Shown one piece after another: positions 690 through 54,094 of a stretch of DNA of 64,000 nucleotides. The translations under genes and the position numbers were made by a program. Source of the DNA: a virus; the IMG/VR virus record IMGVR_UViG_3300031949_000010. One strand, written 5' to 3'. The notes under the pieces are model-generated. The model saw nothing but the letters and a program-made list of their open reading frames with translations, did no database searches and had not been told where the DNA came from. Each line of letters begins with the position of its first letter. Within the stretch, counting starts at the first letter, position 1.

Positions 690-705
690 ACTGGAAAGGA
701 ACCCG

Positions 706-1545
706 ATGGTGCCTCTGAGGAAGAACCAGATGGGCTGAGGGGGAGGATCCCCCCCGCCGCCCCTTCCGCCGTCGGCGGACGAGGGCGACGGAAACGGCGC
801 TGTGGCGCTGCCATCCTCTCCGGCAGCCGCTCGTCCCGGCGCGTCCCTCCGGGGAGGCCAGGGAGGCGAGGCCATTCCGGCCTGGAATGCCCAGGGGCTG
901 GCGCCGACCGAGGAATCGAGGCTCGAGGCGGCAGGGCTAACGCCCTACCGAGGCCCGGTTCATCCGGGGGCGTCCAAGCCGTCCATCGGGGGCGCGTCGA
1001 TCCCCTGGCTTCTCGTGCGCGGCCTAGGCCAGACGCCAACCCTGCCGCCGGCACCCGTCTCGGACGAGCCGCCCCAGCCGGGGCCGGTGCCGCCGGCCAC
1101 GCCCCAGGCGCCGAGGGGGGGCGTCCGCATGGGGCCCCCTCCCGCCCCCCGGCCCGCCCAGGCGCGGGCCAAGGTGGCCAAGGCACAGGCGGCGAAGTTC
1201 CTGCACCTCGCGGACGAGTCCCTGGTCGAGATCCGGGGCACGCTCGTCAAGGCGGCGTCGCCGGCGCCGAGAGACCGGGACCGCATGGCGGCGCGCGCGA
1301 TCGGCCAGTGCATGAGGGCCCTCGCGAGGGCGGTCGATCCTCTGGGACGGGCGATGAAGGAGCTCCGAGCAGCCAGGGACGAGGGCCGGGACGCCTCGCT
1401 CTCGGATGATGAGCTCGGGGCCCTCGAGGCCTTCTCGACGTGCGCGGAGCGCGCGGCAGAGGAGCGCCGCAGTCACCGGAAGGCGGAGGCGGCCGTGGGC
1501 GGAGGCGTGCCCGCAGTCCTCACGCTCGCGCTGCTCGTGCTTTAG
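706..1545 (+). CDS. Pro-rich, tail-anchored putative virion membrane protein, paralog family A; in-frame TGA at 736-738
   Basis: ATG 706 with SD aagga is in frame with the tracked ORF 802..1545; C-terminal helical domain plus TM (VGGGVPAVLTLALLVL) aligns with ORFs 50844, 52509 and 53315. Confidence 0.75.
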
Positions 1546-1581: not shown

Positions 1582-2547
1582 ATGGCGATCAGGGCCGGCC
1601 TCGGCTGACCCGACGACCAGTTTGAGGAAGGGTCCGGCCCGGAGGGCGTGGACCTGGCCGGGGGCGCGGTCTGGATCGGCGTCTCCGTGACGCCTGCAGA
1701 CCGGGCGGGAAACGTGCGGACGGCCCGGGGCTCCGCGATCGGCGCGGCGCTTTGCGGCCCCGACGGGGGGCCCCCGGCGGGTGAATGGGCCATCGAGCTC
1801 CACACCGACCGCGCGCTTCCCCCTCGGTCTCAGGGCGCGGCGAAGCCGGCCGGACCGGCCGTAGGGCCGATGCTGGAGAGGATGGTAGACCCCGAGGGCC
1901 CGTGCGCCCTCACGCACGCGCGCCTCGTCTGCCATGAAGGACGCGGGGAGTCCAGCCGGGCCGTGCGGTTCGAGCCGCCGGTTCTCTTCGGAGCAGATGA
2001 GCTCGCCCTGGTCAGGGTCGAGGTCCGAAGGGCCCCGGAGGTGCGGGTTCCCGCTCCCCGGATCGTGATCCGGAAGGAGCCCGAGCCGGAAGGGCATCAG
2101 CCCAGGCTCTCATGCGCCCCCCAGGAGGGGCTGAAGGGAGGATCCATGGCACGCCGCGCATTGGGAGCGATCGAGGACCAGATCAAGCAGGCCCGGGAGT
2201 TGATGGACCGCTTCGTCACCCTCAACCCCTCGAGGGACGACAAGAACGAGGTGGACCTGAAGCTCTCGAAGTGTGAGGGGCTCTACGAGGCGGAGAACAT
2301 CGTCAATCTGCCGCTCATCACGCACATCGCGAGCTCGGTCTGCTTCGACGAGTTGATCGACAAACTCCAGAGCATGGTCGCGAGGTACACAAGGACCCCG
2401 GTGCCTACTCCCGGCGCCAAGCCGGCTGAAGGCATGCCCTGGTATGCCTGGGCGGGGATCGGACTGGGGGCGCTGGCTGGGCTCGGATTTTTGGCTTGGG
2501 CGGTGGCGCCAAAGCCGGCGGCCGCACCCGGGAGGAGAGCGGCATGA
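1582..2547 (+). CDS. Hypothetical protein (beta-rich N half) in frame with a downstream membrane protein; in-frame TGA at 1606-1608
   Basis: ATG 1582 MAIRAGLG*PDDQFEEG is in frame with the tracked ORF 1648..2547. Confidence 0.55.
2146..2547 (+). CDS. Helical membrane protein with near-C-terminal TM (133 aa), probably with its own start
   Basis: Strong SD gaagggagg before ATG; MARRALGAIEDQ...PWYAWAGIGLGALAGLGFLAWAV. Confidence 0.7.
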   Translation: MARRALGAIEDQIKQARELMDRFVTLNPSRDDKNEVDLKLSKCEGLYEAENIVNLPLITHIASSVCFDELIDKLQSMVARYTRTPVPTPGAKPAEGMPWYAWAGIGLGALAGLGFLAWAVAPKPAAAPGRRAA

Positions 2548-13580: not shown

Positions 13581-14242
13581 TGGACGCCATCTCCCTGCAG
13601 GGAATATGGCCCACGGCCGTGTCCACCCATACGCTAACCGGGCCAGCAGCACCCCATAGAGACTCTTCCTCTACCAAGGGTACCTCAGGATCAGGCTGCT
13701 CGGCGGCTCAGCGGTTTGGCTCCCCCGTAGGGGCTACCGTCAAAACATTCGCGAAAGCATGCGTCAAATTCGGCCTGGAAAAGAAGGTAGACAAGAAGGC
13801 ACCCCACGACGGGGTGCGGCAGCGGGACGAAATCTACCGCCTCAGGGAACGGATCGCGGCATTCAAGGAGAGGATCCGTCAACTCGAGGATCTTAACCGA
13901 TCGCGCTCTTCAGCGGACGAAGAGGCTAGGCGGAAAGCCGAGGAGGAGCGGGACAGGCTGCTCCGTGAGATAGGACAGCTTGCCGATGAACTCGATGCGA
14001 CGTGCATCGAGAAGCGGGGGCTTGAGGAGGCGTTGGCGGAGGCTAGGTCTTCGAGGACGACCGCCGCCTGGCTGATCGGGTCAGGGGTCGCCCTGGGCGT
14101 GCTGACGGCCCTCGTGAGCCCCGGCAAGACGGCTTCGTTCATCGGATTTGGGGTCGCGTCCGCCGCCTTCTTGGCCGGGTTCATGACCCTCGTACGCCCA
14201 TCGGCCGAGTCCCTCCCAGTGGACGCATCCGTGAGCGCCTAG
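13580..14242 (+). CDS. Coiled-coil protein with two C-terminal TM helices (220 aa)
   Basis: Heptad-rich Glu/Arg helix, then AAWLIGSGVALGVLTALV and FIGFGVASAAFLAGFMTLV. Confidence 0.75.
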   Translation: MDAISLQGIWPTAVSTHTLTGPAAPHRDSSSTKGTSGSGCSAAQRFGSPVGATVKTFAKACVKFGLEKKVDKKAPHDGVRQRDEIYRLRERIAAFKERIRQLEDLNRSRSSADEEARRKAEEERDRLLREIGQLADELDATCIEKRGLEEALAEARSSRTTAAWLIGSGVALGVLTALVSPGKTASFIGFGVASAAFLAGFMTLVRPSAESLPVDASVSA

Positions 14243-14466
14243 GCCAGCGGGATCGCCGGGGGTTGCGAGAACAAGGCGAGCGCCTTCTCGGTCTCCCGGT
14301 GGAGGGCCTCCGCGACGTCCCGGCTCTCGACCATGAGCGTAAGGCCGACGCAATTCCCGAGCGTGATGTGGTAGGAATTTCCGGTTTTCGCCTTGAAGAT
14401 TCCGCCCGAGATCTCCTCTTTGGAGGCTGGTGCGGACACAACATGCAGATAAGTCTTTTCTCCCAT
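14239..14466 (-). CDS. Small hypothetical protein (75 aa), divergently transcribed
   Basis: SD gaaggagg; MGEKTYLHVVSAP... Confidence 0.6.
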   Translation of the reverse strand: MGEKTYLHVVSAPASKEEISGGIFKAKTGNSYHITLGNCVGLTLMVESRDVAEALHRETEKALALFSQPPAIPLA

Positions 14467-14530
14467 GAATGGAATCCTCCTTCGCTGCTCCCTAATACGG
14501 CGCGCCGCCGCCCAGGGGCTGGAAAAAAGG

Positions 14531-14554
14531 TCGATCTTTGCATAATAAGATCGA
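14531..14554. promoter_or_regulatory. Palindromic operator copy 1 (TCGATCTT-N8-AAGATCGA)
   Basis: Perfect 8-bp inverted arms in an AT-rich gap between divergent genes. Confidence 0.8.
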
Positions 14555-14557
14555 ATT

Positions 14558-14589
14558 TTGACGACCTTCCTGCCCCGGGGTCGTATTAT
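14558..14589 (+). promoter_or_regulatory. sigma70-like promoter (TTGACG ... gtcgTATTAT)
   Basis: -35 and -10 like hexamers with a long 20-bp spacer; SD aaggaggg follows. Confidence 0.5.
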
Positions 14590-14613
14590 GGGGCAGGTGA
14601 AGGAGGGATCAAC

Positions 14614-14862
14614 ATGGCGACCCCGCAAGTCTACGCGATGTCCAGGGATGGAAAACTCGCCCACGCCGCTCCCCGGGCCTTCGCGGGTGGCATCCCGACG
14701 AACGATGAATGCGTCCGCCAGGAACGGGCTTGGAGGCGGTGGAGAAATAAGTACGTCCGGGAGCATTCCGGAAGCTACCCTCTCAAGGACGAGCGGCGGA
14801 ACGCCCACATCTACCGAGTGGTGCTCGCGGACGGGTCGACGGTGGACATCGCGTGCGTCTGA
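14614..14862 (+). CDS. Hypothetical protein (82 aa), first gene of the small-ORF operon
   Basis: SD aaggaggg; MATPQVYAMSRDGK... Confidence 0.65.
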   Translation: MATPQVYAMSRDGKLAHAAPRAFAGGIPTNDECVRQERAWRRWRNKYVREHSGSYPLKDERRNAHIYRVVLADGSTVDIACV

Positions 14863-14871
14863 GGAGAAGCC

Positions 14872-17503
14872 ATGAACCAGACGACCTACGAGGCTTGGGC
14901 GTGGCAGCGACTCACCGCTTTGGTGAACGAGGGGCAGAACCACCTCCGGACGCTTCGCAACATGTTCGCGGTAGCCGCCAGGGAGGGACGCGTCACGACG
15001 CAAGAAGAGCGGGCTGCTGCGGAGCACGCCATCTACGCCGACTAACTCTTCTAGGAACGGGAGGAATTCGATGAACGACACGAACGTAATCGCCCGAGAT
15101 CCCGAGACGAAGCAGCCCAGCGCGATCCACTGTGGGTGCGGTGCCCGCGTCGAACTGGACGGCTACGACGTGACGTGCGGCTGTGGCCAGCCCTTCAACG
15201 GGTTCGGCCAGCCCCTTCGCCGTGGGCACGACATGGAGTGCCCGTGCTGGGAGTGCGCGTGAAAAAGCCTCTGTGCCAGGAGTGTCGTCATCGCTTGGAG
15301 CGGCATACCAAGGACGGATGCCACGCGAGGTATTCCGCTCGCCGCGCTGGGAGTCGCCGTTGTCCGTGTCGGCGTTTGGCGCAGGTCGTTTGACTCAGAA
15401 TTGAGAGTCGAGGAACGGAGGAAAGATGAACACGGGACTGCTGGACAAGGCGCTTATCGGGAAACACGCTTTCACGGCCATCGTGGAGAGCGAGGGCTAC
15501 ATCATCGGCCGTGCTGACTATGGGATTGGTGGCTACACCCCCATGCGTCGTGAGCCAACCTTCAAGACCTACGATGCGGCGCAGAAGTTCGCGAACGGGC
15601 TCAACGAAAAGATGGGGCTCACCAAAGAAGAGGCCCTCAAGATCGTTTTCAACACGATGCGCTGAAGACTCGAAATACGAATAGGAGGGTCTGTGACGAC
15701 TGAGGAGGCGGTGATCGTGGCAAGAATCATGATCGCCGAGCGAGGCGTTCAAAGGAGTCCAAGTAGGCAGGTTGCGGATCTCCTGAACGCATTCGCTACT
15801 GTTGACATGGCAGACTTTTTTAACGCACTGGACGACTACCTGGACCCGGTAACCCATGATGAGGTTTTTGGCATACTGGAACGGAGACGAGAAGGAAGAG
15901 AATAGATCAAAGGAGGAAACTGTGGCTCGATGCAAGGCGAAGAAGAGGCCCGCGAAATATGCCTTTCGCTGCCGTCGTCGGCAGGGGCACAACGGCAAGC
16001 ACCGGGCGCAGATCTATCCCGGCTACAGCGGACGCCTGACCTGGGGTCGCTGAAGTACCATGATCTGCAAATGCTCCTGCCACGTAATCGAGGCGCGGTC
16101 CTGCGCGGTCTGCCCGTGCAAGCCGCTTCCGAAATACACCGATGAATGGACGCCCGGCCCTCGCCGGATGCCGGTCGGGTACCGGGCGAAGAGGTCGCGC
16201 CCTGGGGCCTGGAGGCACGCGGGCGGGGCGAGAAAGCACTAACCTGACATTGGGAGCAAGCCATGGAAGCGGTACAAGGATCAGAGGAGTCATCGATCAA
16301 GGACGCCGAGAAGCTCCGCAGCCAGCGGAAGCAGGCGGCAGCGTACATGCGGGAACGGGTGAAGAATCTGGACAAGAAGATGGCCGAGAATTTCGTCCAG
16401 ACGAACTACGCTCTTGCCGCAGGGGATGCCCGTGAGATGGCCGAGCTGCTCTCGGTCCTAAGCCGGATGGATCTGGAGTCGTAGTACAAGCATATGACGA
16501 CCGTCGATGACGTCCGGAAGCTGCTCGAGGCTGTCGAGGCCCTTGCCCCCGCCTTCGATTGCTGCGTGGACGAGCTGGAGACTTACGCCGAGGTGATCGT
16601 CCGAAAGGCGAACGGCATGGAGTACAGCGACGTCTCCTGCCCGGAATCAGTCCTGGTTGCCGCGCTGATTCTGCGACTTCGGAAGAGGCTTTCGGAGTGG
16701 GAGCGCCAGATCGCCCCGAATGCCAAGGCCGAGCGATACTCGCTCAAAGACTTGTCCGGGGACGAGGAATAGACCTTTCAGGTAGACGGAGCCTATGTGA
16801 AAAGAGATCGCAGCGCCGAAAAGAACCCTATGGCCTACATGAAGACCAGCGGGCGGTTCGAGTCGCTTCGCGTCGACCTCTCTAAGCGGTTGGGGATCAC
16901 CGTCAAGGCGACTCAGGTTATCGAGTACCTGATGAATTTCTACGACAAGCACAAGACCTGTGGGGACACCAGTCGCGGATGAACTGAAAGGACTACCGAT
17001 GTGGAGCTGCCCGAATTGCGAAGCCCTCGCCGCCGAGCTTGACAGAGTCACGAAAGAACGGGATCAGGAAAGAGAGAGCTGGGCGAAGGCCACGGATCTC
17101 ATGATGAAGGGCGAGGCGCTTCGAGATCGCATGATGTTCATGGCGATCACCGGGAAGTTTCCACCGAAGACATAGAAGATTTGATCGAGTAATCCCATGA
17201 ACGATGACTGGAAGTCTGGCTTCACCGGGGCCATCCTAGCCGCGAAAGCTAAGGCTAGCGAATTCAACACCAGGGCGAACGCCTCGGGCCCGCTTGACTG
17301 CCTCCTCCTCCGCGCTAAGGAAGAAGCAGTCAAGGAGCTTGTCACGGATTTGGAAACGATCCTGGAAAAGTCCTAGAAGAGAACTTATGACCTTCGATTA
17401 CCGCCTCTACAAACTCCGGACTCAGGGGCCAGACTTCTACGCAACCCTGAATTGGGGAGGGCACCCCAAGAGGTCGTGGTATCTCGCGGTCTGCATGAAC
17501 TGA
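14872..17503 (+). other. Run of ~12 tightly packed small early-type ORFs (e.g. 14872-15045, 15071-15262, 15259-15393, 15426-15665, 15693-15905, 16060-16242, 16263-16484, 16494-16772, 16797-16982, 16960-17175), several Cys/His-rich
   Basis: SD sites and head-to-tail packing; no recognisable functions. Confidence 0.6.
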
Positions 17504-22968: not shown

Positions 22969-23294
22969 CCCAGTGAGAATCGGCTTGTTTTGCAGTTGTG
23001 GCGCAGGGCTCGAAGGAGAACTGCCGGATTCTGCGGTCGATAGGTTGATCGCAATCTGGCGAGAGTGCCACCAGGGCCCTGGACACGGATCCTGCACGAA
23101 AAGGCAGGCTACCGAGGCAATGAAGAAAGCCGAGCTTTTGGACCTCCAGAGCAGACTGAGAATGAATCCTTGAACCACATTCTCCCACTACAGATGGGGT
23201 GGACACCGCCGGCGGGGACCAAAGCCCCGCCGGCGTGGCCTGCGCCATCAGGAGGCACTGGAATGGATCTCGACGACCCAAGGCAAAGGCAACC

Positions 23295-25091
23295 GTGAGT
23301 AAGATCTCCATTGGCAAGGCACCGGACGGGAGTACGGTCTACGCGGACCTGGACGTCTTGAGCCGCACGCGGGCGCTCATCCAGGCGAGCTCTGGCGGGG
23401 GGAAATCCTTCCTGATCCGGCGCCTGGCCGAGCAGATCTTCGGAAAGATACCGGAGTTCATCGTCGACGAAGAGGGCGAGTTCCCCTCGCTCCGCTGCGA
23501 GAAGTTCCCGTTCGTCCTCGTGGGAAAGGGAGGGGACACGCCGGCGGATCCCCGGTCGGCTCAGATCCTAGCGCACCGCCTCCTCGAGCACCGGGCCTCC
23601 GCGATCTTCGACCTCTCCGAGCTCAAACCTCAGGTTCGGCACCACTGGGTGCGGCTGTTCTTCGAAGCCCTCGTCGAGTCGCCGCGGGCTCTCTGGACGC
23701 CCGTCATCGTCTTCCTGGACGAGGCGCACCACTACGCGCCCGAGAAGGGCGACAGCGAAGCGCGCGGTGCCGTGGTCGACGCCGCCACCCGAGGCCGGAA
23801 GCGCGGAATCTGCCTCATCCCCGCGACGCAGCGCCTCGCGAAGCTCTCGAAGGACGTGAGCGGAGAGCTCCTCAACCGCTTGATTGGACCGACCTTCGAG
23901 GACCTGGACATCGAACGCGCGGCCGACCTCCTCTCGATCGTGAAGGCCGAGAAGGCCGACTTCGCCAAGTCGATGCGCGTCCTCGCGCCTGGCAACTTCC
24001 AACTCCTGGGACGGGCCTTTGGAACGGAGCGCATCCAGGTGAAAGTCGGGCCCGTCGAGACGACCCCCCCCGAGCTCGGGCGATCGAAGCGTATGCTCGC
24101 CCCGCCCCCGCCGCCCGAGAAGATCAAGGCCTTCCTCCCGAAGCTTCAGGATCTACCGAAGGAGGCGGAGGAGAAGGCGAAGACGGAGGCCGAACTACGT
24201 GCCGAGATCCGATCACTCAAGACCCAACTCGCCGTCAAGCCGACGGGCTCGGTCATCGCCAAGCCTACAGAGAAGGCGGCGACCCTCAGGATTGAGGTTC
24301 CAGTCGTCAAGCCAGCCGAGCTCCTGCGGGTGGAGAAGGCCATGGGCCGCGCTGTTGAGGCGGCGAACCGAGCTCAGGAGGCCGCGGGCCACCTCAGGGG
24401 CTTCTCGGATCTGATCCAAGAGCGGATCGCGTCGGTCGATAAGAAGCAACGACAGACTGACGCGTCGAGGATCCGCGCAGCCGTCACCGAAGTCCGGGTA
24501 CCCCGGGTACCCCTTAAAACGCCTCTGGAACGGCCCCAGACCGTCAAGAAACCGGCGAATATTATTCACGCCGAAAAAGCGCCCCAGGATGGCCAGGGAA
24601 CGACTCCTGCGCAGGGACGCATCCTGAACGCTTTGTCGGACTTCTACTCGATCGGCCGGTCCGAGGTGCCGAGGACATGGGTCGCCGCCCGCGCGGGCGC
24701 AAGCCATCGCTCCGGTGGCTTCAAGAACAACCTGGGGAGGCTCCGCGCCTTGGGCTTAATCGACTACGGCGGCGCCGGCACCGTCCACCTGACGGAGGCC
24801 GGCCTAGATGCGGCGCCCCCGCCGGACCGCCCCAGCACGACCGAGGCCATGCTGCAGAGTTGCGTCAAGGTGCTCTCTCCGGCGCAGGAACGGATCCTGC
24901 GAGCGGTCTTCGACGCCTTTCCTGGCGTGCTCGTCCGGGAGGATCTCGCGGCCGCCGTCGGGGCCTCGTCGACGTCCGGGGGCTTCAAGAACAACCTGGG
25001 CGCGCTACGGTCGGCTGGCATGATCGAGTACCAGCAGGGCGGCGTGAAATGCGCCAACTGGATCTTCGTGGAAGAGAGGGCCACGGCATGA
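23295..25091 (+). CDS. HerA/DUF87-like P-loop ATPase with two C-terminal winged-helix repeats (598 aa)
   Basis: Walker A ASSGGGKS, Walker B IVFLDEAH, GRKRG..LI.ATQR; SGGFKNNLG.LR..G.I.Y occurs twice. Confidence 0.88.
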   Translation: MSKISIGKAPDGSTVYADLDVLSRTRALIQASSGGGKSFLIRRLAEQIFGKIPEFIVDEEGEFPSLRCEKFPFVLVGKGGDTPADPRSAQILAHRLLEHRASAIFDLSELKPQVRHHWVRLFFEALVESPRALWTPVIVFLDEAHHYAPEKGDSEARGAVVDAATRGRKRGICLIPATQRLAKLSKDVSGELLNRLIGPTFEDLDIERAADLLSIVKAEKADFAKSMRVLAPGNFQLLGRAFGTERIQVKVGPVETTPPELGRSKRMLAPPPPPEKIKAFLPKLQDLPKEAEEKAKTEAELRAEIRSLKTQLAVKPTGSVIAKPTEKAATLRIEVPVVKPAELLRVEKAMGRAVEAANRAQEAAGHLRGFSDLIQERIASVDKKQRQTDASRIRAAVTEVRVPRVPLKTPLERPQTVKKPANIIHAEKAPQDGQGTTPAQGRILNALSDFYSIGRSEVPRTWVAARAGASHRSGGFKNNLGRLRALGLIDYGGAGTVHLTEAGLDAAPPPDRPSTTEAMLQSCVKVLSPAQERILRAVFDAFPGVLVREDLAAAVGASSTSGGFKNNLGALRSAGMIEYQQGGVKCANWIFVEERATA

Positions 25092-32065: not shown

Positions 32066-32292
32066 GTATTGAAATCATGATCGTCTGCGATGGCTGCGGT
32101 CTCAAGGCCCCATCGCCGCTGAAGCCCGCGCCCCCGTCGAGTCCGGTCCCCGGGGCCCTCGAGCTCTGCCCGAAGCCCTTCGTCGCCGCTACGATCAGGA
32201 AGACCCCGTTCTTCCTCCACGCGTGCAGCCCTTCCTGTCAAGCGATCGTCGAGATGAAGAAGTCCGTCCGGATGAGAAATACGCCAAGATGA
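32062..32292 (+). CDS. Small CxxC...CxxxC zinc-finger-like protein
   Basis: IVCDGCG...HACSPSC. Confidence 0.55.
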   Translation: MSIEIMIVCDGCGLKAPSPLKPAPPSSPVPGALELCPKPFVAATIRKTPFFLHACSPSCQAIVEMKKSVRMRNTPR

Positions 32293-32702
32293 GCGAGCCC
32301 ATCGCCAAGGCCATGCTCGTCTGTAACTACGCGACTCAGGACGCGAAGGGCAGATACAGCTTGATCGAGATCTTCGATTCGATCCATCCCCCAGGGTTCC
32401 CTCACTATACCGGGTTCATCCTCTACACGCTGATCGCGGACCCCCCCGCCAAGGGAACCATGGTCGTCCAGGTCGAGGACGACAATGGGATAGCCCTGTG
32501 GACGAGCGGGCACATATCGTTCGTCGTCGCAGATCCATCGGTCTCATGGATGGCCACCTGCCAGCGAGTGGGGCCCGTCTCCTTCGTGTCCTACGGAAAG
32601 TGCAGGGTGGCCGTCTATGTGGGCCCGTACCGGGCAGGAGATCTGGAGCTCAGGATCTCGCCTCCGGCAATACCGGATACCGCCAGGAAGGAGAGCCTGT
32701 GA
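32289..32702 (+). CDS. DUF6941-like beta-sandwich protein
   Basis: AMLVC.YA.QD..G.YSLI.IFD.I...FP pattern. Confidence 0.6.
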   Translation: MSEPIAKAMLVCNYATQDAKGRYSLIEIFDSIHPPGFPHYTGFILYTLIADPPAKGTMVVQVEDDNGIALWTSGHISFVVADPSVSWMATCQRVGPVSFVSYGKCRVAVYVGPYRAGDLELRISPPAIPDTARKESL

Positions 32703-32941
32703 AGGTCATCGAAAGCTCGTGGGTGGACTATCGCGCCAAAGTGATCCCTCGGGCTGCGCCCGAAACCCAGGTAACCGAGATGAAAAGGGCGTTCTACGCT
32801 GGCGCGGCCTGCCTGCTCGACGCCCAATGCAAGATCCTCGGGCCTGGACGGGAGCCGACCGATTCCGACTTGCTCATCATGGACGGGATCCAGGCGGAGC
32901 TCGAGCAGCATGCCCGCGACGTCCTGGCCGGGAAGGCCTGA
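32699..32941 (+). CDS. Phage hypothetical protein (Q..EMKRAFYAGA motif)
   Basis: Signature motif recalled from phage proteins. Confidence 0.7.
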   Translation: MKVIESSWVDYRAKVIPRAAPETQVTEMKRAFYAGAACLLDAQCKILGPGREPTDSDLLIMDGIQAELEQHARDVLAGKA

Positions 32942-33121
32942 GCAATGGAGCCGGTCAAAAGCGTCCAGGAGGCCGAGCGCGCCGTTCTCGCCGTTGCCGA
33001 TGAGTGGTATGATCTGGCGCACGCTCAGTACGTGAACGTGGACGACTGGAGGAAGATCGCCGTCAAGATGGACAAAGCCGTTCAAACGCTCCGGAAGGCC
33101 AGGGCGAGGGCCATGGGCGTT

Positions 33122-33143
33122 TGATCTTAGTGCAAATAGATCG
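33122..33143. promoter_or_regulatory. Degenerate operator copy (TGATCTT-N8-TAGATCG)
   Basis: Same N8 geometry; lies between ORF 32945..33124 and 33152..33340. Confidence 0.45.
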
Positions 33144-33151
33144 GATTCCAA

Positions 33152-33340
33152 GTGAAAATCGCCGAGATCAAGGTGACCGCAGGAAAGGACATGATCGTCT
33201 TCTCTCCGAAGGCCATCATGTTCGTCTTCTCGGGGAAGGCCGGAAGCCTCGACCAGAGGATGGCCCAAGCTCTCTGGAAGGCGATCCCACTGCCGGCCGA
33301 GAAGCTCTGTGCGGAGATTGAAAGGCAGTCGAAGAAGTGA
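33152..33340 (+). CDS. Small protein, paralog of 30413..30598
   Basis: MKIAEIKVTAGKDMIVFSPKA. Confidence 0.7.
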   Translation: MKIAEIKVTAGKDMIVFSPKAIMFVFSGKAGSLDQRMAQALWKAIPLPAEKLCAEIERQSKK

Positions 33341-33394
33341 GCCCTGCATGGACACTCTGGTCGGCATGAAGTAGAATCCCTGCAGGGAGGCCGC

Positions 33395-33929
33395 ATGCCG
33401 GAAAGTTCGGTCTTGGTCGACCGCGCGCAACTCCTGGGTCTCGTCCGGAGGGCCGAGGAGCACCTGGGGCAACTCGACCTCGTCGGCTCCTCGGCCGCGC
33501 AGCTCGCCGACCGCGTCCTCCGGGAGCTCACCCCGAAGCTCAAGGCCCTGCTCGCCGAGGGCGCGACGGTTCTCGAACCCATGATCCGGACGTCGCTCAA
33601 GGAGGAGATCGCCCCGAAGCTGGCGCTCGCCGCAGGCACCGCCCTGTTCTTCGCGGGCGTCATCTCTGGGCTGGTCGGGGCCGGCTTCGCGTCGAGAAGG
33701 TGCTCCTGACGTGTGGCACGCCCTCCTCTCATGGGACCCCGGGGCCGTCGGGCTCGTGATCGCCTATCTGGGCATCGGCCAGTTCTACGCCTCGCAGATC
33801 CTCTCCCGTCCGGTAAACATGAGGCATTCGCCGGTCTACTGGCCCGTAGTGGTGCTGTCGGTGGCCACCCTCATGGTCGCATGGCCGGTCCACCTCGCCC
33901 TCCGTGCGTCGCTCCGGGGGCGCCGGTGA
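33395..33929 (+). CDS. Two small membrane proteins (33395-33709, 33711-33929)
   Basis: Hydrophobic segments LALAAGTALFFAGVISGLVGAG; AVGLVIAYLGIG and YWPVVVLSVATLMVAW. Confidence 0.6.
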
Positions 33930-47975: not shown

Positions 47976-48499
47976 GGGGAGCCCTCCTCAAGTACCGCGC
48001 TCCCCCCCAGAGAGGCCCTTCGGGAGACGTCCGGCGGAAGGTGCGAGGACGGCCAGGTCTCGATCAGGTCCTCGGGGGCGCCGATTCCGCCATGGGGCGC
48101 GAATCCCTGCTTGGCGAGCGCATGAGCGTGTTGGGAGGCATGCGCCCAGTCCCTGAAGGCGAGCCCGCGTCCACGCCACCCGAAAACGACGAAGAACGGC
48201 TGGCCTGCGTCTGGGCGCTCGCCCAGGAGCGCCCGTGCCCGCACGCTGCGGGCGTGAGACCAGAGGGCCCGCCCTTTTGCCGTGGGCATCGGCCTCCCAG
48301 AACGCGTCTGCCGGACGAGGCCCCTCGATTTCAACTCGGAAAGATCGGCCGTCCAGCGCTCCCCCTCCTCGTCGCCTTCGCCATCCAGGAGCATGCCGAG
48401 AAATGACGCCATGATGTCCAAGTCGGCACGCTCGGCGGCCGCAGGGCGCTCCGCTACCTGCTCCACGGCGCGATCGAGTAGAACGGCGAAACGATCCAT
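47972..48499 (-). CDS. Hypothetical protein
   Basis: GTGA coupling to the downstream gene; start uncertain. Confidence 0.55.
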   Translation of the reverse strand: MDRFAVLLDRAVEQVAERPAAAERADLDIMASFLGMLLDGEGDEEGERWTADLSELKSRGLVRQTRSGRPMPTAKGRALWSHARSVRARALLGERPDAGQPFFVVFGWRGRGLAFRDWAHASQHAHALAKQGFAPHGGIGAPEDLIETWPSSHLPPDVSRRASLGGSAVLEEGSP

Positions 48500-48975
48500 G
48501 GGTAGTACGGCACCTGGCCCGTGGGCCCGACGGGGGACCCCGGGTAGTACGGCTGAACCCGCCCTGGCGCGGTCGCTTGGGCAGGTCCCATCTTCTCGAG
48601 TCCGGCTCGGAGCGCCCGCACGCGCGCGGCCAGCGTCGCATGCGCCGCCACAGCTCGCCGGCGCTCGTCCAAGCCCTCCTCAAGCCGCGTGGTGGCCTGG
48701 TCGTGCCGCTGGCCGACCTGGCCAAGCTTACGAAGCCATGCGGGCGTCATCAGCCGGTCGAGCGTCCCGTTGGAGAGGGCACGCCTCGCCTCGAGAGCCA
48801 TGGCGCCCATCCAGTCCGACGTGATCCTGTGGGCCTCCTCTCGCGCGCCCACCGCGGACTGGATCGAGGCGAGGATGCCCTCGGCTTTCTCCAGGTCATG
48901 GAGCGCGCGCGCAAGCTTCTCCTGCGCCTCCGCCCGGGCCCGGGCGTCCACCGGGGCGACCTGTCCCATCCTCAT
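48454..48975 (-). CDS. Coiled-coil protein with Pro/Tyr/Trp C-tail (family B)
   Basis: SD gaggagg; MRMGQVAP...QPYYPGSPVGPTGQVPYYPWIVSPFYSIAPWSR. Confidence 0.7.
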   Translation of the reverse strand: MRMGQVAPVDARARAEAQEKLARALHDLEKAEGILASIQSAVGAREEAHRITSDWMGAMALEARRALSNGTLDRLMTPAWLRKLGQVGQRHDQATTRLEEGLDERRRAVAAHATLAARVRALRAGLEKMGPAQATAPGRVQPYYPGSPVGPTGQVPYYPWIVSPFYSIAPWSR

Positions 48976-49017
48976 CGAGATTCCTCCTCGGCCGTTCCGG
49001 CCGCGTCAGGCAGCCCC

Positions 49018-49601
49018 TCAGGGCGGGCATTCCTTGGCCTTGCAGAGCTCCGCCGCCGCCTCTGCCTCCTTGAGCGTGGCGAAAGGCGTGGCCCGTGAGC
49101 GCCGTCGGGCCCTGCCGCAACGTCCCCCCGTCGTCCGGAGGAAACCCCTGAGGTCATTCGTAGTTGGGTCGAACAGCGCGACCACGAAGCCCTTCCCCGC
49201 GAGCCCCTCATCCACAACCGCGCAGGGCGGCATGGGCGCCCCAGACACTCCAGCCGCTGGACGCCGGCAGGACGCCGGCGTGGTCACAATTCCCTCCGGA
49301 GCGTGATCGAGAGCCTCCTGGCGTAATCGGGCCTTCCGTCGGCCTTCCAGACGCGGGCCTGCTCCTGAGCCTCCTCGACAAGCATCCGGAATCCCTCTCG
49401 GGCCGCCTCGATCCAGTGGGGATCCCGGCTGAGGTCCGCCTTCATTCCCTCGAAAATCGCTTCGGCGACACGGCTCACCCACGGAAGCACGGGGTCGTCC
49501 GTGCGCCGGATCATGGCGCGCCCCGCCAGGACGCGCTGGACCTCGCCTAGAACGGCCTCCTCGACCAAGTCAAGCGCCTGGGCGAGCGAGAACGCGGCCA
49601 T
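49018..49601 (-). CDS. Two small hypothetical proteins (49018-49287, 49284-49601)
   Basis: SD aaggag before 49601; GTGA overlap. Confidence 0.55.
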
Positions 49602-49603
49602 AG

Positions 49604-49909
49604 CTACTCCTTGCCCATGATACGGCCGATGATCGAGCAGATGTCGAGGAGCGCCGCGAACGCGCTCACAATGCCCACCGTCCAGCCGGCCGTCGACCAG
49701 AAGCCGGAGGCGATGATGCCGAGGTATACCCCGATTGCGCCAGTCGAGCCGTGGACGAGAAGACGCACGGCGTCGCCCACCCATCCCGGAAGCCCCATCA
49801 TCCCGTCCCAGGTCTGACCGAGGCCGAGCGGTGGCCGCGCCGCTGGACGCGCTCCAGCGAAGCTGGGCCGTGCGAAGCGGGCTGCGGAGTCGAGGATGGT
49901 CGGGGTCAT
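49604..49909 (-). CDS. Small multi-TM membrane protein with GLGQ leader
   Basis: ARFARPSFAG...PLGLGQTW; hydrophobic C-half. Confidence 0.7.
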   Translation of the reverse strand: MTPTILDSAARFARPSFAGARPAARPPLGLGQTWDGMMGLPGWVGDAVRLLVHGSTGAIGVYLGIIASGFWSTAGWTVGIVSAFAALLDICSIIGRIMGKE

Positions 49910-50844
49910 CGAGGGCCCCCGGAAGAGTAATAGTAGGGCATTTGGGGCTTCGCCGAGGCGGTGGGGGAGGTCGCTGTCGGCACCGCAACTATGACCTGAG
50001 GGATGATGGCCGTTTCAGGCGACCACCATTTTCTAATGTCGATCCTCAACCCCCGCATCCGGACGCACCAGACGAACCAGGCGTGCATGTCCGCGCTGGA
50101 TGCAAACTTCCCCTGCATGGTCTCCTTCAGTTCTCGCGCCGCGTCCTTCATCTCATTCTCGGCGCTCTTGACAGCCCCAGCCGGGGCCCTGCGAGCGGTC
50201 TGCGCGTTGTACTCGGAGACGGCCGTTTCAAGGTTCTTCGCCAGGATACAGAGTTCATCCCAGATGACGGGCACTTTCGCAGGCACGGCGGGCGCGCGGG
50301 GAACTCCGGCCGACGGGGCGGGGGTGGGCGTGGGAGCCGGCGCGGATACTGGCTGCTGCGGCTGAAGGGCGCGGAGAATCGCCTCCTTCTCCCAGAGGAG
50401 GGCCTGCATCTTCGCGCGTAGGGCCAGGTCAGTCTCGATCCTTGCCGCCCAGAGTTTGGCCTGATTTTCTGGGAAGTCGCGCTCGAGTTGCTTTATTCTC
50501 CACTCCTCGTAGCCCAGCCAGCCGCTGGCGCGAGCCGCCCGGAGCCGTTCTGCGTCGCGTTCGTAATCTTCCGCATTCCGGCGGATCGCCTCGTAGAGGT
50601 TGGTCATCTCCAAGTCGATCTGGTCGACGGTTTTCGTTGGCACGGCGGGCCGCGCGCTCGGGGTGGAGGACGTCACCGCTGCCGGAGGGAGTTGGGCGAA
50701 CCCGGGGCGGAGCCGATCCCACAGGCGGTTCAGGTCCTTGGAATAGTCCCGGTACTGGTCGCGCCAGTAGTCGATCATCGGCTGGGTCGCCGAGGGCGGT
50801 TGCCCGAGCGCCCTTCTCCGCGCATGAAAGGCCATCGGAAGCAT
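49906..50844 (-). CDS. Coiled-coil/Pro-rich protein (312 aa) with ALGQ leader and PYYY tail
   Basis: TGATG coupling; MLPMAFHARRRALGQPP... Confidence 0.7.
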   Translation of the reverse strand: MLPMAFHARRRALGQPPSATQPMIDYWRDQYRDYSKDLNRLWDRLRPGFAQLPPAAVTSSTPSARPAVPTKTVDQIDLEMTNLYEAIRRNAEDYERDAERLRAARASGWLGYEEWRIKQLERDFPENQAKLWAARIETDLALRAKMQALLWEKEAILRALQPQQPVSAPAPTPTPAPSAGVPRAPAVPAKVPVIWDELCILAKNLETAVSEYNAQTARRAPAGAVKSAENEMKDAARELKETMQGKFASSADMHAWFVWCVRMRGLRIDIRKWWSPETAIIPQVIVAVPTATSPTASAKPQMPYYYSSGGPR

Positions 50845-51308
50845 CAGAGCACCGAGAGAAGAAGTGAGAGAATCGTGGGCAACCCGACGCCGGCCACCGC
50901 AGTCAGCACGGGTGGCGCCGCCGGGACCCCGAGGAGTGGCTCGGCGCACTTCGCGAAGGCCTCGATCGCCTTGATCTGGGCTAGGTCAAGTGACATCGGC
51001 CCCTGGCCACCCTGGGAGATCCGGGACAGCGTGTCGATCGCCCGGTCGAGATCTGGAACCTGCTCGACCAGGTCCTTCATGCAGACATCGGCCCGCGCGG
51101 CCGCCTTCCGCTCCGAAGTCGAAGCGCCCCCCCGGGCAACGGCCTCGAGGGCCCGCGCGACGGCGTCCCTGGAGCTTCTGGCAAGAGCGAGCAGCCTTTC
51201 GGCCGAGGGCCGGTCCAACTCCGCCCGTGGCGGGAGCTCCGGCTGCTCCCGGACGTCCGGGGGCGCGGGAAACTCCGGCAAGGGCCCGAGATCACGATGA
51301 CCGGGCAT
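50844..51308 (-). CDS. Tail-anchored protein, paralog family A (shortest member)
   Basis: KAAARADVC...AIEAFAKC...VAGVGLPTILSLLLSVL. Confidence 0.75.
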   Translation of the reverse strand: MPGHRDLGPLPEFPAPPDVREQPELPPRAELDRPSAERLLALARSSRDAVARALEAVARGGASTSERKAAARADVCMKDLVEQVPDLDRAIDTLSRISQGGQGPMSLDLAQIKAIEAFAKCAEPLLGVPAAPPVLTAVAGVGLPTILSLLLSVL

Positions 51309-51528
51309 TCGCCTCCCTTGCGATCATGCTTCTCCTCAGCTTGAGCCCCACGAGCCGCGCGGCGAGGCTCTCGGCCCGCGCCCTTGCGCCAGAGCCCCCC
51401 GTGGAGAGCGCCAGGCGCTCGGCCGTCTCCACGGCCTCCTCCGCCGTCGGGATCGCAATCTCGTCCATATACCTCAGCGCCCAGGATGGGCTGGCCGGCG
51501 GCGGGCCCCCCATGAGAGCCTGTCCCAT
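51292..51528 (-). CDS. Small protein (78 aa), MGQALMG leader
   Basis: TGATG coupling. Confidence 0.55.
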   Translation of the reverse strand: MGQALMGGPPPASPSWALRYMDEIAIPTAEEAVETAERLALSTGGSGARARAESLAARLVGLKLRRSMIAREANARSS

Positions 51529-52499
51529 CAGAGAAAGATACCCGGAAATGCCTGAACGCGCAACCCCGCCCCGTAGGGTGGAAACCACGGGAAGGAAGGG
51601 GCTGAGACAGGAACGGTGACCTGCGAGCGCGGTGCCGGGATGGGAGGGCGCGGCGCGGCGGGCCCCATAACAAGCCGGTCTGACGGCGGGACGATCCGGA
51701 TGCTGGGGGGAGAGTAGGTCGCCCCCTTTGGGAGCGCGCAGAGCTCGTATCCGACCCGCTTCACCCAGGCGATTTCGGGCGCTGTCAGGAACTCGGTTAC
51801 TTGCTCGTTGAAATTGGACGCCTCACGCCGCGCTCGCTCGTAGGCGTCCTGGCCAGCCTGCCCCGTGGTCGTTCTGGCCCGGTTCTGCTCGCGGCAGATG
51901 AGTTCCCACTGCTTGGCGAGTCCCCAGAGCTCGCGCTCGCGGGTTCCCCGCGGCCACGGGTTCTGGCTCTGGCCGAGCGCGGCACCGGATCTGATGCCCG
52001 CCTCTGCGAGCGCCAGCATCCGCCCGATCAGGGCCAGGGGGACGTCGACCCTCGATCCCGGCGGCGTTGCAGCCGCCGTAAGGGCCTCGCGCGCTGCCGA
52101 CGAGGCTGCGGCATGGCGCACCGCCGAGAGACCCCGGGGAGCGGCCACGGCGCCCTCGTAGCGCTCCATCGCGCGGGCTGGCGGGGGAACGAGGGAGACG
52201 AGATCTGTGCCGGAGGCTTTGGCCAGCCAGCGGAGCGTCTGGCCTGAGAGCGATGCCGTGCCGGCCGGCGGGGGTGCCAACTCGTCCGCGCTCGTCCGGT
52301 CAACTCCTGGACAGTCCTCGGCGCGGAATGCGGCGAGCGCGGCACCGCGGCCGGCGGCATTCAGGCGGGACTCGAGGACGACGGCGAAGACATGCCGCCA
52401 GTTGTCTACTGCGGGCTTATTGACCCTCGACCGGGCCTGCGAGTAGTCGCGGGCGACCTGGCAGAGGGCGGCGACTACGTCCTTCAGGGTATCGGCCAC
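51528..52499 (-). CDS. Ala/Pro-rich protein (323 aa) with internal ALGQ and aromatic Pro tail
   Basis: SD gaggagg; ...SFPWFPPYGAGLRVQAFPGIFL. Confidence 0.65.
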   Translation of the reverse strand: MADTLKDVVAALCQVARDYSQARSRVNKPAVDNWRHVFAVVLESRLNAAGRGAALAAFRAEDCPGVDRTSADELAPPPAGTASLSGQTLRWLAKASGTDLVSLVPPPARAMERYEGAVAAPRGLSAVRHAAASSAAREALTAAATPPGSRVDVPLALIGRMLALAEAGIRSGAALGQSQNPWPRGTRERELWGLAKQWELICREQNRARTTTGQAGQDAYERARREASNFNEQVTEFLTAPEIAWVKRVGYELCALPKGATYSPPSIRIVPPSDRLVMGPAAPRPPIPAPRSQVTVPVSAPSFPWFPPYGAGLRVQAFPGIFL

Positions 52500-52508
52500 G
52501 GGACCTCC

Positions 52509-53318
52509 TCAGGCGGCAACCAGGACGGACCCCACGATGGGTAGCCCGGTTCCGATTAGTGCTTCGAGCCAGGGCGTACCTGCAGGCTCGGCTCCGGCCG
52601 TTCCGAGCGCCTCCTCTACGCAGCGGGCGAAGGCCTCGAGCGCCTCCGCCTGAGCAGGCGACACGCGTGCGGGACGCCCTTCTATCTTCGCGGCGCAGAG
52701 TTCGTCGACCAGCCGACGGAGCTCCCCAACTTGCGTTCGGAGTTCGATCAGGCATCTCTCTCCGGCAGCCGCCGCGCCCTTCTCGGCCGCCGTCGCGCTG
52801 CACCTCCGAGCGCGGATCCGGGCACGCTCTATCTGGATCCAAGCGGTTTCCGAGAGCTCGAGGATGCGGGTCACGATGCCGATCTCGATCATTCCCACTC
52901 CCGGGATCGGGGGCACCTTGGCGGGCGGCGGCGGACGGATGAAAGGTGGAAGAATGGCGGTGGGCGGGATCACGGGCCGCGGCCGAGGTGGAATGGGCGG
53001 TCCGATGATCGGAGGAGACGTGGGCGGCGGCGGCATGATTTCAACCGTTGGCGGAGGCGCGAGCGACGGTGCCGGCGGGACGACGGGCGATGGGGGAGCT
53101 CCGCCCGGGACGCAAATGGGGCACGGAGGCTCATTCTGGGGCTTCGCCGTGCTGACCCAGGTGAGGATGCACTTCCCGGTGCCAGTGTCATAGCACTTGA
53201 CGAGACCGCCTTCCTGGCAGCACTGGATCTGCCCCAGGCCCGCCTGGCCCATCAGCCAGTGCATCGTCTTGTGGCTCAGGCTGACGTATTCCTTTCCCAT
53301 GCTCGCCATCTTCGTCAC
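52509..53318 (-). CDS. Family A: Cys-rich head, Pro stalk, helical domain, TM anchor
   Basis: GLGQIQCC...; GAAAAGERC...ALEAFARC...IGTGLPIVGSVLVAA. Confidence 0.8.
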   Translation of the reverse strand: MTKMASMGKEYVSLSHKTMHWLMGQAGLGQIQCCQEGGLVKCYDTGTGKCILTWVSTAKPQNEPPCPICVPGGAPPSPVVPPAPSLAPPPTVEIMPPPPTSPPIIGPPIPPRPRPVIPPTAILPPFIRPPPPAKVPPIPGVGMIEIGIVTRILELSETAWIQIERARIRARRCSATAAEKGAAAAGERCLIELRTQVGELRRLVDELCAAKIEGRPARVSPAQAEALEAFARCVEEALGTAGAEPAGTPWLEALIGTGLPIVGSVLVAA

Positions 53319-54094
53319 GCCGCAATCAGGATGGAGGCGGCCGCCGGCAACGCGACGCCCGCAACGGCCTTGAGCCAGTTGGGCGAGGAGTCGGGCGCGA
53401 TCGCCGCAATCTCGCCCAGACAGGCAACCAGAGTCTCGAGGGCCCCGACCTGCCGCGCGTTCAAGCGCGCCGCCCTACCCGCCCTCTTGGCGGCACAGAG
53501 CTCGCCGACTGCCGCTGAAAGCGTGCCGGCGGCGACCGTGAAGCCGGCTAGGCACTGCTTCGCCTGCGTTGCGGCCATCTTGTCGGATTCACTCGCCCCG
53601 CAGCGCTGCCCGCGCAGAATGGCCGCCTCGGCGCTCTCCCATGCCGCCTCTGCCTTGGAAAGGATGCCTTCGACTGCTGCCGTGTCGACTGGTCCCGTTG
53701 GCCCGGTCGGAGGAGGCGGCCGCGATGGCGTGAAGGGAAATTGCCCGCCTGGAAAGCCCTGCCCAGGCGGTGGTGCCCATGGGAAAACGCCCGGAAAGAA
53801 CGTGGGCGGCGGGACCGGGGGACCCAGGGGTGCCCCTCCTCCCCAACCAGGGTCAGGGCGGGGATCTCCGGCCCCCGGGGGGGCGGGAATGCCTCCGCCG
53901 CCGGTCGTCAGGTCGATGGTGCCCGTTCCGCCCCCTCCCGCGCCCCCGCCGGCGTCAGCGCCTCCGGGAGCAGGCGCGCCTCCCGGGACGCACGTGAAGC
54001 TCTCGGTGAGGTTGTCAGGGCTTATCGTGACCTGAGGAACCATACCCGGAGGGCACTGCTGGCCGAGGGCCATCGAAAGACGGACAGGCATCAT
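53315..54094 (-). CDS. Family A: two-Cys head, Gly/Pro stalk, helical domain, TM anchor
   Basis: MALGQQCPPG...; KMAATQAKQC...ALETLVAC...VAGVALPAAASILIAA. Confidence 0.8.
   Translation of the reverse strand: MMPVRLSMALGQQCPPGMVPQVTISPDNLTESFTCVPGGAPAPGGADAGGGAGGGGTGTIDLTTGGGGIPAPPGAGDPRPDPGWGGGAPLGPPVPPPTFFPGVFPWAPPPGQGFPGGQFPFTPSRPPPPTGPTGPVDTAAVEGILSKAEAAWESAEAAILRGQRCGASESDKMAATQAKQCLAGFTVAAGTLSAAVGELCAAKRAGRAARLNARQVGALETLVACLGEIAAIAPDSSPNWLKAVAGVALPAAASILIAA

Follow-up and report, generated by a model that had tools for sequence, protein, structure and literature searches.

Near the start of the viral DNA analysed here (64,000 nucleotides from an uncultured soil virus-like element, referred to as the window), an in-frame TGA stands directly behind a ten-codon leader in an otherwise open frame, and the question that this locus raises is whether the codon ends translation or is decoded as part of a longer protein. 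Inspection of the sequence placed the leader MVPLRKNQMG from ATG 706, with GGC 733-735 as its last codon and TGA 736-738 next; beyond the TGA, the frame stays open by way of GTG 802 to TAG 1543-1545. An earlier note, made from the letters alone, had described a Shine-Dalgarno sequence before ATG 706 and a GGC-TGA in frame with the 802-1545 reading frame, and both descriptions were borne out. The parts of this gene (gene 1) are as follows.

693-701, plus strand: Shine-Dalgarno-like sequence GGAAAGGAA, 5 nt upstream of the leader ATG
706-735, plus strand: leader MVPLRKNQMG, ten codons, with basic residues and a Met-Gly (GGC) end
736-738, plus strand: in-frame TGA, the proposed recoding site, present in nine of nine gene-1 contigs of the TGA type
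739-1545, plus strand: remainder of the gene (family A), encoding a Gly/Pro-rich stalk, a Cys-paired helical domain and a C-terminal membrane anchor, ending in TAG

Family A has four members within the window, each built from a variable head, a stalk rich in Pro, a helical domain in which two Cys residues are conserved, and a C-terminal membrane anchor. The UGA site falls in a Gly/Pro-rich stretch that is predicted to be disordered and lies outside any catalytic motif. The paralog at 53315 (53315-54094, minus strand), which the earlier note had taken to point to Trp at the stop, indeed reads PGWGGGAP there, with Trp encoded by TGG. The motif [L/M]-G-Q was seen at several paralog N termini. A lipoprotein or prepilin signal was considered for the leader and rejected, the leader having no hydrophobic core and Leu at -2, not -3.

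Gene 2 (1582-2547), which lies next to gene 1, repeats the design: ATG 1582, the leader MAIRAGLG, GGC-TGA at 1603-1608 and a frame that is open to 2547.

1582-1605, plus strand: leader MAIRAGLG, eight codons
1606-1608, plus strand: in-frame TGA, always followed by a Pro codon; TGA in six of six contigs with the gene-2 N domain
1630-1655, plus strand: hairpin of 11 bp with one bulged G and the loop GGA (1641-1643), 32 nt past the UGA
1609-2547, plus strand: remainder of the gene, encoding a beta-rich N domain, a three-helix domain and a C-terminal membrane anchor, with an ordinary TGA stop

The start chosen for gene 2 by open reading frame callers, GTG 1648-1650, sits inside this hairpin. An AlphaFold2 model of the gene-2 protein, built from four sequences, was of low confidence (pLDDT 56), and Pfam returned no significant family for the gene-1 protein, the gene-2 protein or their paralogs. 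Both proteins are putative tail-anchored, virion membrane components.

Relatives were obtained through protein look-ups, and the family is rare: a search of 185,579 species genomes gave no relative, JGI metagenome contigs and IMG/VR gave almost none, and cultured phages gave no close relative. The contigs compared were these.

L011/L012 (Logan/JGI): 94% nucleotide identity to the window over 4.3 kb
L007 (Logan): about 80% amino-acid identity to the window
L001 (JGI): about 60% identity to the window
L003 and L008 (JGI): 35-42% identity to the window
L009 and L010 (Logan): 35-42% identity to the window
L002 and L004 (Logan): 35-42% identity to the window, lacking the TGA

The synteny of the module is kept among the relatives, with a glycosyltransferase gene coming next. 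The arrangement leader-[M/L]-G-TGA-G was found for gene 1 in nine contigs spanning 35-94% identity (the window, L011/L012, L001, L007, L003, L008, L009 and L010), the leaders including MMPIKKSSMG, MLAKKNGMG, MEPKKKLG and MKLRMRGLG. The gene-2 N-terminal domain occurs only in the window, L011/L012, L001, L007 and L008, each with [L]-G-TGA-P. AAGGA or AGGAG boxes are placed upstream of the leader ATG in L001, L007, L008 and L010, and the gene-1 GGAAAGGAA is unchanged in L011/L012. In every distinct sequence of both genes the proposed recoded stop is TGA, with no instance of TAG or TAA. It occupies codon 9-11 of the gene, or about codon 50 in L009, in which the TGA lies some 50 codons into a Cys-rich head that runs uninterrupted in L002. 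The codon ahead of it is GGC or GGT and the one further up ATG, CTG or CTC, so that the constraint acts on the peptide [M/L]-G. The gene-2 leader differs from that of L001 by six synonymous and no non-synonymous changes. A plain nucleotide alignment contains gaps of 3 and 6 nt.

The earlier note had proposed comparing homologs for a TGA versus a sense codon, and this came out both ways, with TGA in the nine contigs, TGG in L002 and TGC in L004. MAFFT was unreliable on the N termini of distant relatives, and the motif [L/M]-G-X-G was aligned by eye and position, which makes the following correspondences uncertain. At this site L002 has TGG (EMG-W-GGGGS) and its relative L009 the TGA (GLG-TGA-GGGSS), and Cys occupies the aligned site, within a short low-complexity motif, in L004 (ELG-C-GC) and in an internal copy of L008 (ELG-C-GE). 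The DNA of this internal copy, CTGGGCTGCGGCGA, is nearly the same as that of the leader-TGA site of L008 itself, CTGGGCTGAGGCGA. Because TGG, TGC and TGA are single-step neighbours, Trp or Cys in relatives does not decide which residue the UGA would encode.

Sequence evolution past the TGA follows a coding pattern. In codons +1 to +12 of gene 1, comparisons with the closer relatives gave 2, 0 and 5, 1, 0 and 4, and 1, 0 and 5 differences at first, second and third codon positions, respectively, and pN was 0.04-0.08 versus a pS of 0.33-0.42. In gene 2, over codons +1 to +25, the third position varied at least as much as positions 1 and 2 in every pair. Judged by these patterns, purifying selection on the gene-1 protein begins at the first codon past the TGA. 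Furthermore, homologs were found not to start at 802, as the earlier note had allowed they might: GTG 802 is GCG in L011/L012, and the first in-frame ATG, GTG or TTG of gene 1 lies 2-33 codons past the TGA at non-homologous places, with a start-free run of up to 33 codons in L007. For gene 2, L007 carries GTC in place of GTG 1648, and no start codon (ATG, GTG or TTG) was seen in frame from its TGA up to the called start at 1821. Scanned copies of gene 2 had their first in-frame start 4, 5 or 13 codons past the TGA. A separate main open reading frame is therefore unlikely on sequence grounds, and because the TGA is conserved, the downstream frame is under selection and no downstream start is conserved, sequence error, a pseudogene and a start at 802 can all be excluded as accounts of the locus.

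Constraint was also apparent at the nucleotide level. The window and L011 diverge by 6.25% over 4.16 kb, chiefly at third codon positions, and the 125 nt of 675-799, comprising the Shine-Dalgarno sequence, leader, TGA and two hairpins (A and B), contain no difference and form the second-longest such run; 1630-1689 is another long difference-free run. The two gene-1 hairpins were predicted by RNAfold.

739-753, plus strand: hairpin A, 6 bp GGGGGA/UCCCCC (739-744 with 748-753), loop GGA, beginning at the base after the UGA
754-791, plus strand: hairpin B, core 765-779 UCCGCC GUC GGCGGA, with its loop from 32 nt past the UGA

Hairpin A is the structure directly 3' of the TGA that the earlier note had described. 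Its counterparts in L001, L007, L009 and L010 likewise begin at offset 0, with stems of 6-11 bp, and such a hairpin is present at the UGA in 5 of 7 distinct gene-1 TGA sites, against a background of 8.6% for a stem of at least 6 bp beginning 0-4 nt from random positions in the same sequences. The earlier caution that it may just reflect Gly-Pro codons is opposed by two observations: the TGG-bearing paralog at 53315 encodes the same GGG-A-P peptide with no such hairpin, and the L009 hairpin, GGAGGA-GGA-UCCUCC, carries a compensatory G-C to A-U change that replaces Pro by Ser in the peptide. Hairpin B was found at all seven distinct gene-1 TGA sites, with a stem of 5-12 bp and a triloop with G first (GUC three times, GUU twice, GGC and GGA) located 20-38 nt past the UGA; the background for such a hairpin at random positions is 29% for stems of at least 5 bp and 15% for at least 6 bp. 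Its stems are formed by unrelated sequences encoding unrelated peptides, for example CCUCCACG GUC CGUGGAGG in L003. Five TGC sites in relatives have no hairpin B, and the TGG site of L002 has one of 7 bp. Gene 2 has no hairpin adjoining its TGA. In its downstream hairpin, C1635-G1650 is replaced by a G-C pair in L007, the outcome of two synonymous substitutions (TCC to TCG and GTG to GTC).

These data suggest that the UGA in both genes is decoded in frame, in a programmed manner and by some route, a reading to which a probability of roughly 75% is assigned. Programmed UGA readthrough, one of the options raised in the earlier note, thereby gains support from the codon-position pattern, the nucleotide constraint and the conserved hairpins, the choice between Trp and selenocysteine aside. 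As to the route, readthrough by near-cognate tRNA-Trp, serving to throttle expression, is tentatively preferred to selenocysteine insertion, at somewhat less than an even chance. Translation would initiate at the leader AUG, and at the UGA, RF2 and the decoding tRNA would compete. Gly precedes all of the proposed recoded TGAs versus 2 of the 49 ordinary TGA stops in the window, and the +4 base at these sites is G or C and never U. A passage of PMC10802582, citing Pierson 2016, gives Gly as the residue with the slowest peptide release, and a +4 U makes termination stronger (PMC5289835). Because the P site would hold glycyl-tRNA and the +4 base is not U, release is expected to be slow. Some ribosomes would then insert an amino acid, most probably Trp by means of tRNA-Trp, which naturally reads stop codons as a near-cognate (PMC7026636), and would complete the tail-anchored protein including its leader; the remaining ribosomes would release just a peptide of 8-10 residues. 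With readthrough partial in this way, the UGA could act as an inexpensive throttle on translation, or as a gate sensing the supply of RF2 or tRNA, on two adjacent putative virion membrane proteins, and the 3' hairpins would tune decoding efficiency.

Readthrough by tRNA-Trp would yield the same protein that relatives with Trp produce, and the location of the site tolerates any residue. Several features fit this route less well. Structure-stimulated readthrough is established in eukaryotic viruses and not in bacteria, and the structures of eukaryotic viruses typically lie about 8 nt from the stop, whereas the hairpins here begin 0 nt and about 16-27 nt from the UGA, and hairpin A must melt while the UGA occupies the A site. 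The geometry of hairpin B suits the bacterial SECIS model (PMC13188914), and L004 and L008 have Cys at the aligned site. In L008, ATG codons occur 2 and 4 codons past its two TGAs, so reinitiation would be possible there. Finally, a weak ribosome-binding site could equally attenuate expression. The strict placement of the stop after [L/M]-G in two genes is a feature that an attenuator of that type leaves unaccounted for.

Selenocysteine insertion at both UGAs, with host SelB and tRNA-Sec recruited by hairpin B as a bacterial SECIS, would make the two products virus-encoded selenoproteins and is considered unlikely. The standard criteria for a selenoprotein are homologs from other sources that also have the TGA, a stem-loop downstream of it and Cys in relatives (PMC13188914), and all three apply at least in part, the last through L004 and L008. 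The bSECIS model calls for a loop of 3-9 nt with G in its first two positions, a stem of 4-16 bp, a spacing of 16-37 nt from the UGA and a stability of -7.5 kcal/mol or lower (PMC13188914). A search for such an element, proposed in the earlier note, was positive to the extent that the gene-1 hairpin of the window agrees with the model on all four points (GUC loop, 32 nt, core stem of -8.9 kcal/mol) and the gene-2 hairpin on loop, stem and spacing (GGA, 11 bp, 32 nt); it was negative in Rfam, where no SECIS or other family was recovered up to an E-value of 10. Selenocysteine would also be in keeping with the absence of hairpin B from the five TGC sites, and strict use of TGA would follow automatically. 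Furthermore, the lower SECIS stem beside the UGA is usually unwound by the ribosome (PMC7026636), which would suit hairpin A. Because the UGA is placed directly after the [L/M]-G leader motif, cleavage of the leader past Gly may make the UGA-encoded residue the new N terminus, where a selenocysteine could thus come to lie.

On the other hand, Trp, found at the site in L002 and in the 53315 paralog, is unusual for a selenocysteine position, and this low-complexity, disordered region has no nearby Cys or redox motif. The hairpins are heterogeneous, with loops that differ by gene (GUC, GUU or GGC versus GGA or GAC) and a hairpin B spacing that ranges over 20-38 nt, reaching 38 nt in L010, and those of L008 and L009 fall short of the -7.5 kcal/mol of the model. 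L002 retains its 7-bp hairpin B despite having TGG. In addition, the model is permissive in GC-rich DNA, where a comparable filter passes 15-29% of random positions. A literature search turned up no description of a selenoprotein from a prokaryotic virus; that the tail-anchored gene-1 and gene-2 proteins are the first such selenoproteins, borrowing host SelB by way of their own SECIS-like hairpins, is a doubtful proposition, slightly more so than selenocysteine insertion itself.

Less probable again is a model in which the leader is an independent regulatory mini-ORF, where the UGA terminates translation, perhaps with stalling at [L/M]-G, and the main protein is made by reinitiation or from a separate start to which the hairpins gate access. 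Precedent exists in short leader peptides that exert their effect at termination, and the leader here has its own Shine-Dalgarno sequence and a conserved peptide. The close ATGs in L008 and the occurrence of a GGAGG box together with GTG 1648 inside the gene-2 hairpin are also in line with this model. However, the main frame has no conserved start of its own, and protein-level selection is seen from the first codon past the TGA. Moreover, the stop is invariably TGA and invariably in frame with the main open reading frame, and the L009 TGA interrupts a Cys-rich head that is contiguous in L002.

A timed code switch, in which a late, virus-encoded UGA-suppressor tRNA or RF2 inhibitor unlocks both genes, is considered quite improbable. 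It would draw on the use of stop-codon recoding as a late-gene lock in phages (bioRxiv 10.1101/2021.08.26.457843), both genes resemble virion membrane components and are thus probably late, albeit putatively, and the window leaves out about one third of the contig. Against this, no tRNA gene was found in the 64 kb of the window or at the related loci, and TGA is the commonest terminator, ending 49 of 93 provisional open reading frames, several with ATGA-type overlaps. Scans of the window for leader-type arrangements returned only the two sites in about 90 genes, and genome-wide use of TGA as a sense codon was rejected on these counts. TGAs at 14860, 32939 and 33338, which have a coding signal on both sides, were considered as further recoded codons and attributed to separate adjacent small genes; two of the three have an ATG a few codons downstream, and the TGA at 33338 is most likely an ordinary stop as well.

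Bypassing of the T4 gene 60 type, in which peptidyl-tRNA-Gly would leave GGC and land on a matching downstream Gly codon, has next to no probability. The Gly codon, the stop, the hairpin from the next base and the conserved nascent leader recall listed bypass signals (PMC7026636), but no landing GGC or GGU is conserved, the stop shares the frame of the downstream reading frame in all lineages, the supposed gap shows the codon-position pattern of coding DNA with indels in multiples of 3, and gene 2 has no hairpin beside its stop. A broken gene or an error of sequencing or assembly, with TGG, TGC or CGA turned or misread into TGA, as the earlier note had also considered, is just as remote and was refuted: TGA is one substitution away from the TGG and TGC of relatives, but the same TGAs recur in two genes, in independent samples and assemblers (JGI, Logan and ENA) at 94% down to about 35% identity, and purifying selection flanks the TGA on both sides. 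Frameshifting is not required because the TGA is in frame. TadA-type A-to-I editing of the UGA was likewise discarded, as the UACG loop motif that marks such editing is absent at both sites.

The proposed in-frame decoding has practical and conceptual implications. Gene finders truncate both genes at arbitrary internal codons, with calls in relatives that come 2 to about 130 codons late. To our knowledge, no device of programmed stop decoding at the very start of a gene has been described in bacteria or their DNA viruses. Here the stop lies in a fixed context of nascent peptide and hairpin, and the product of failed decoding would be a harmless peptide of 8-10 residues. If readthrough is responsible, this recoding element of about 90 nt would amount to a small and transferable readthrough signal for bacteria and would give viruses a new means of setting protein dosage; if selenocysteine is inserted, selenoproteins would be extended to prokaryotic viruses.

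Known systems resemble the proposed element in part. With bacterial selenoprotein mRNAs of the E. coli fdhF type (PMC13188914), it shares a conserved UGA, a small loop with G first 20-38 nt downstream, a UGA-adjacent structure that the ribosome must open and Cys in some homologs; it differs in having Trp in other homologs, a low-complexity setting lacking a redox motif, heterogeneous loops and spacing, and in residing in a virus-like element. T4 gene 60 (PMC7026636) offers the same series of Gly codon, stop and adjacent hairpin behind a conserved nascent peptide, whereas here there is no matched landing codon or non-coding gap and everything is in frame under protein-level selection. In line with stop-reassigned phages (bioRxiv 10.1101/2021.08.26.457843), the in-frame stops are confined to probable structural genes and the host presumably uses the standard code. 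In contrast to those phages, the sites number only two and share a defined motif, TGA is still the leading terminator, a suppressor tRNA was not seen and GC content is high. The A1 protein of Q-beta (Allolevivirus) is made by UGA readthrough with tRNA-Trp, and as proposed here, an in-frame UGA is leaky, a minority of ribosomes insert an amino acid and continue in the same frame, and the stop codon sets the product ratio. The general mechanism of readthrough is described in PMC7026636. The stop codon of Q-beta follows a complete coat protein, which readthrough lengthens at its C terminus, whereas here the stop is codon 9-11 (about codon 50 in L009), termination would leave just a short peptide and readthrough would produce the whole protein, in a DNA element that uses the device in two adjacent genes, at a fixed [L/M]-G motif and with hairpins conserved on the 3' side.

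The two longest runs without a difference between the window and the related metagenome contig L011, which diverge by 6.25%, lie at 675-799 and 140-336. The former is the leader-TGA-hairpin region of gene 1, while the latter holds a gene of 55 aa (169-336) whose protein identity is 82-85% even in comparisons with L001 and L007, two other contigs that have a TGA in both genes. The start that ORF finders give the 247-aa ORF of gene 1, GTG 802-804, is replaced by GCG in L011/L012 (94% identical; window-equivalent 800-810), and gene callers then set the start of the homolog approximately 70-110 codons further in.

Short leaders ending in [L/M]-G-Q are found at several ORF N termini on the minus strand of the window, as follows.

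48454-53318, minus strand: ORF N termini with the leaders MRMGQ, PPLGLGQ, LMGQAGLGQ and MALGQQ

The Gln in these paralogs occupies the position of the TGA in both gene 1 and gene 2, and [L/M]-G-Q is possibly a processing signal. Within the gene of L008, a further contig with both TGAs, the leader site at 567-596 (CTGGGCTGAGGCGA, L-G-stop-G-D) nearly recurs approximately 110 nt downstream, at 699-715 (CTGGGCTGCGGCGA, L-G-C-G-E), which suggests that the leader-site motif was duplicated within this gene.

Simple ORF calling chose the wrong strand in two regions, 14239-15081 and 32238-33472, where the long ORFs on the minus strand have a poor codon-position GC pattern. On the plus strand, these regions hold several small genes that share a frame and are set apart by TGA; of the three junctions, two have an ATG a few codons past the stop. 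Elsewhere, a 630-aa protein (23199-25091) weakly matches a terminase-large-subunit PHROG and shares 36% identity over half its length with an uncultured Caudoviricetes record annotated 'hera helicase'; a search for a relative among cultured phages found none.

The beta-rich N-terminal domain of gene 2 (1609-2154, approximately 180 aa) is present only in the window, L011/L012, L001, L007 and L008, which form one lineage, and the homolog in the relatives L002, L003 and L004 consists of the C-terminal part alone (124-131 aa). In L007, a hairpin with a 6-bp stem (CCUCGG UUGAC CCGAGG) holds the gene-2 UGA in its loop of 5 nt. The gene-2 leader itself, AIRAGLG-stop-Pro (1582-1611), resembles IRAGP, the core of the arrest peptide in SecM.
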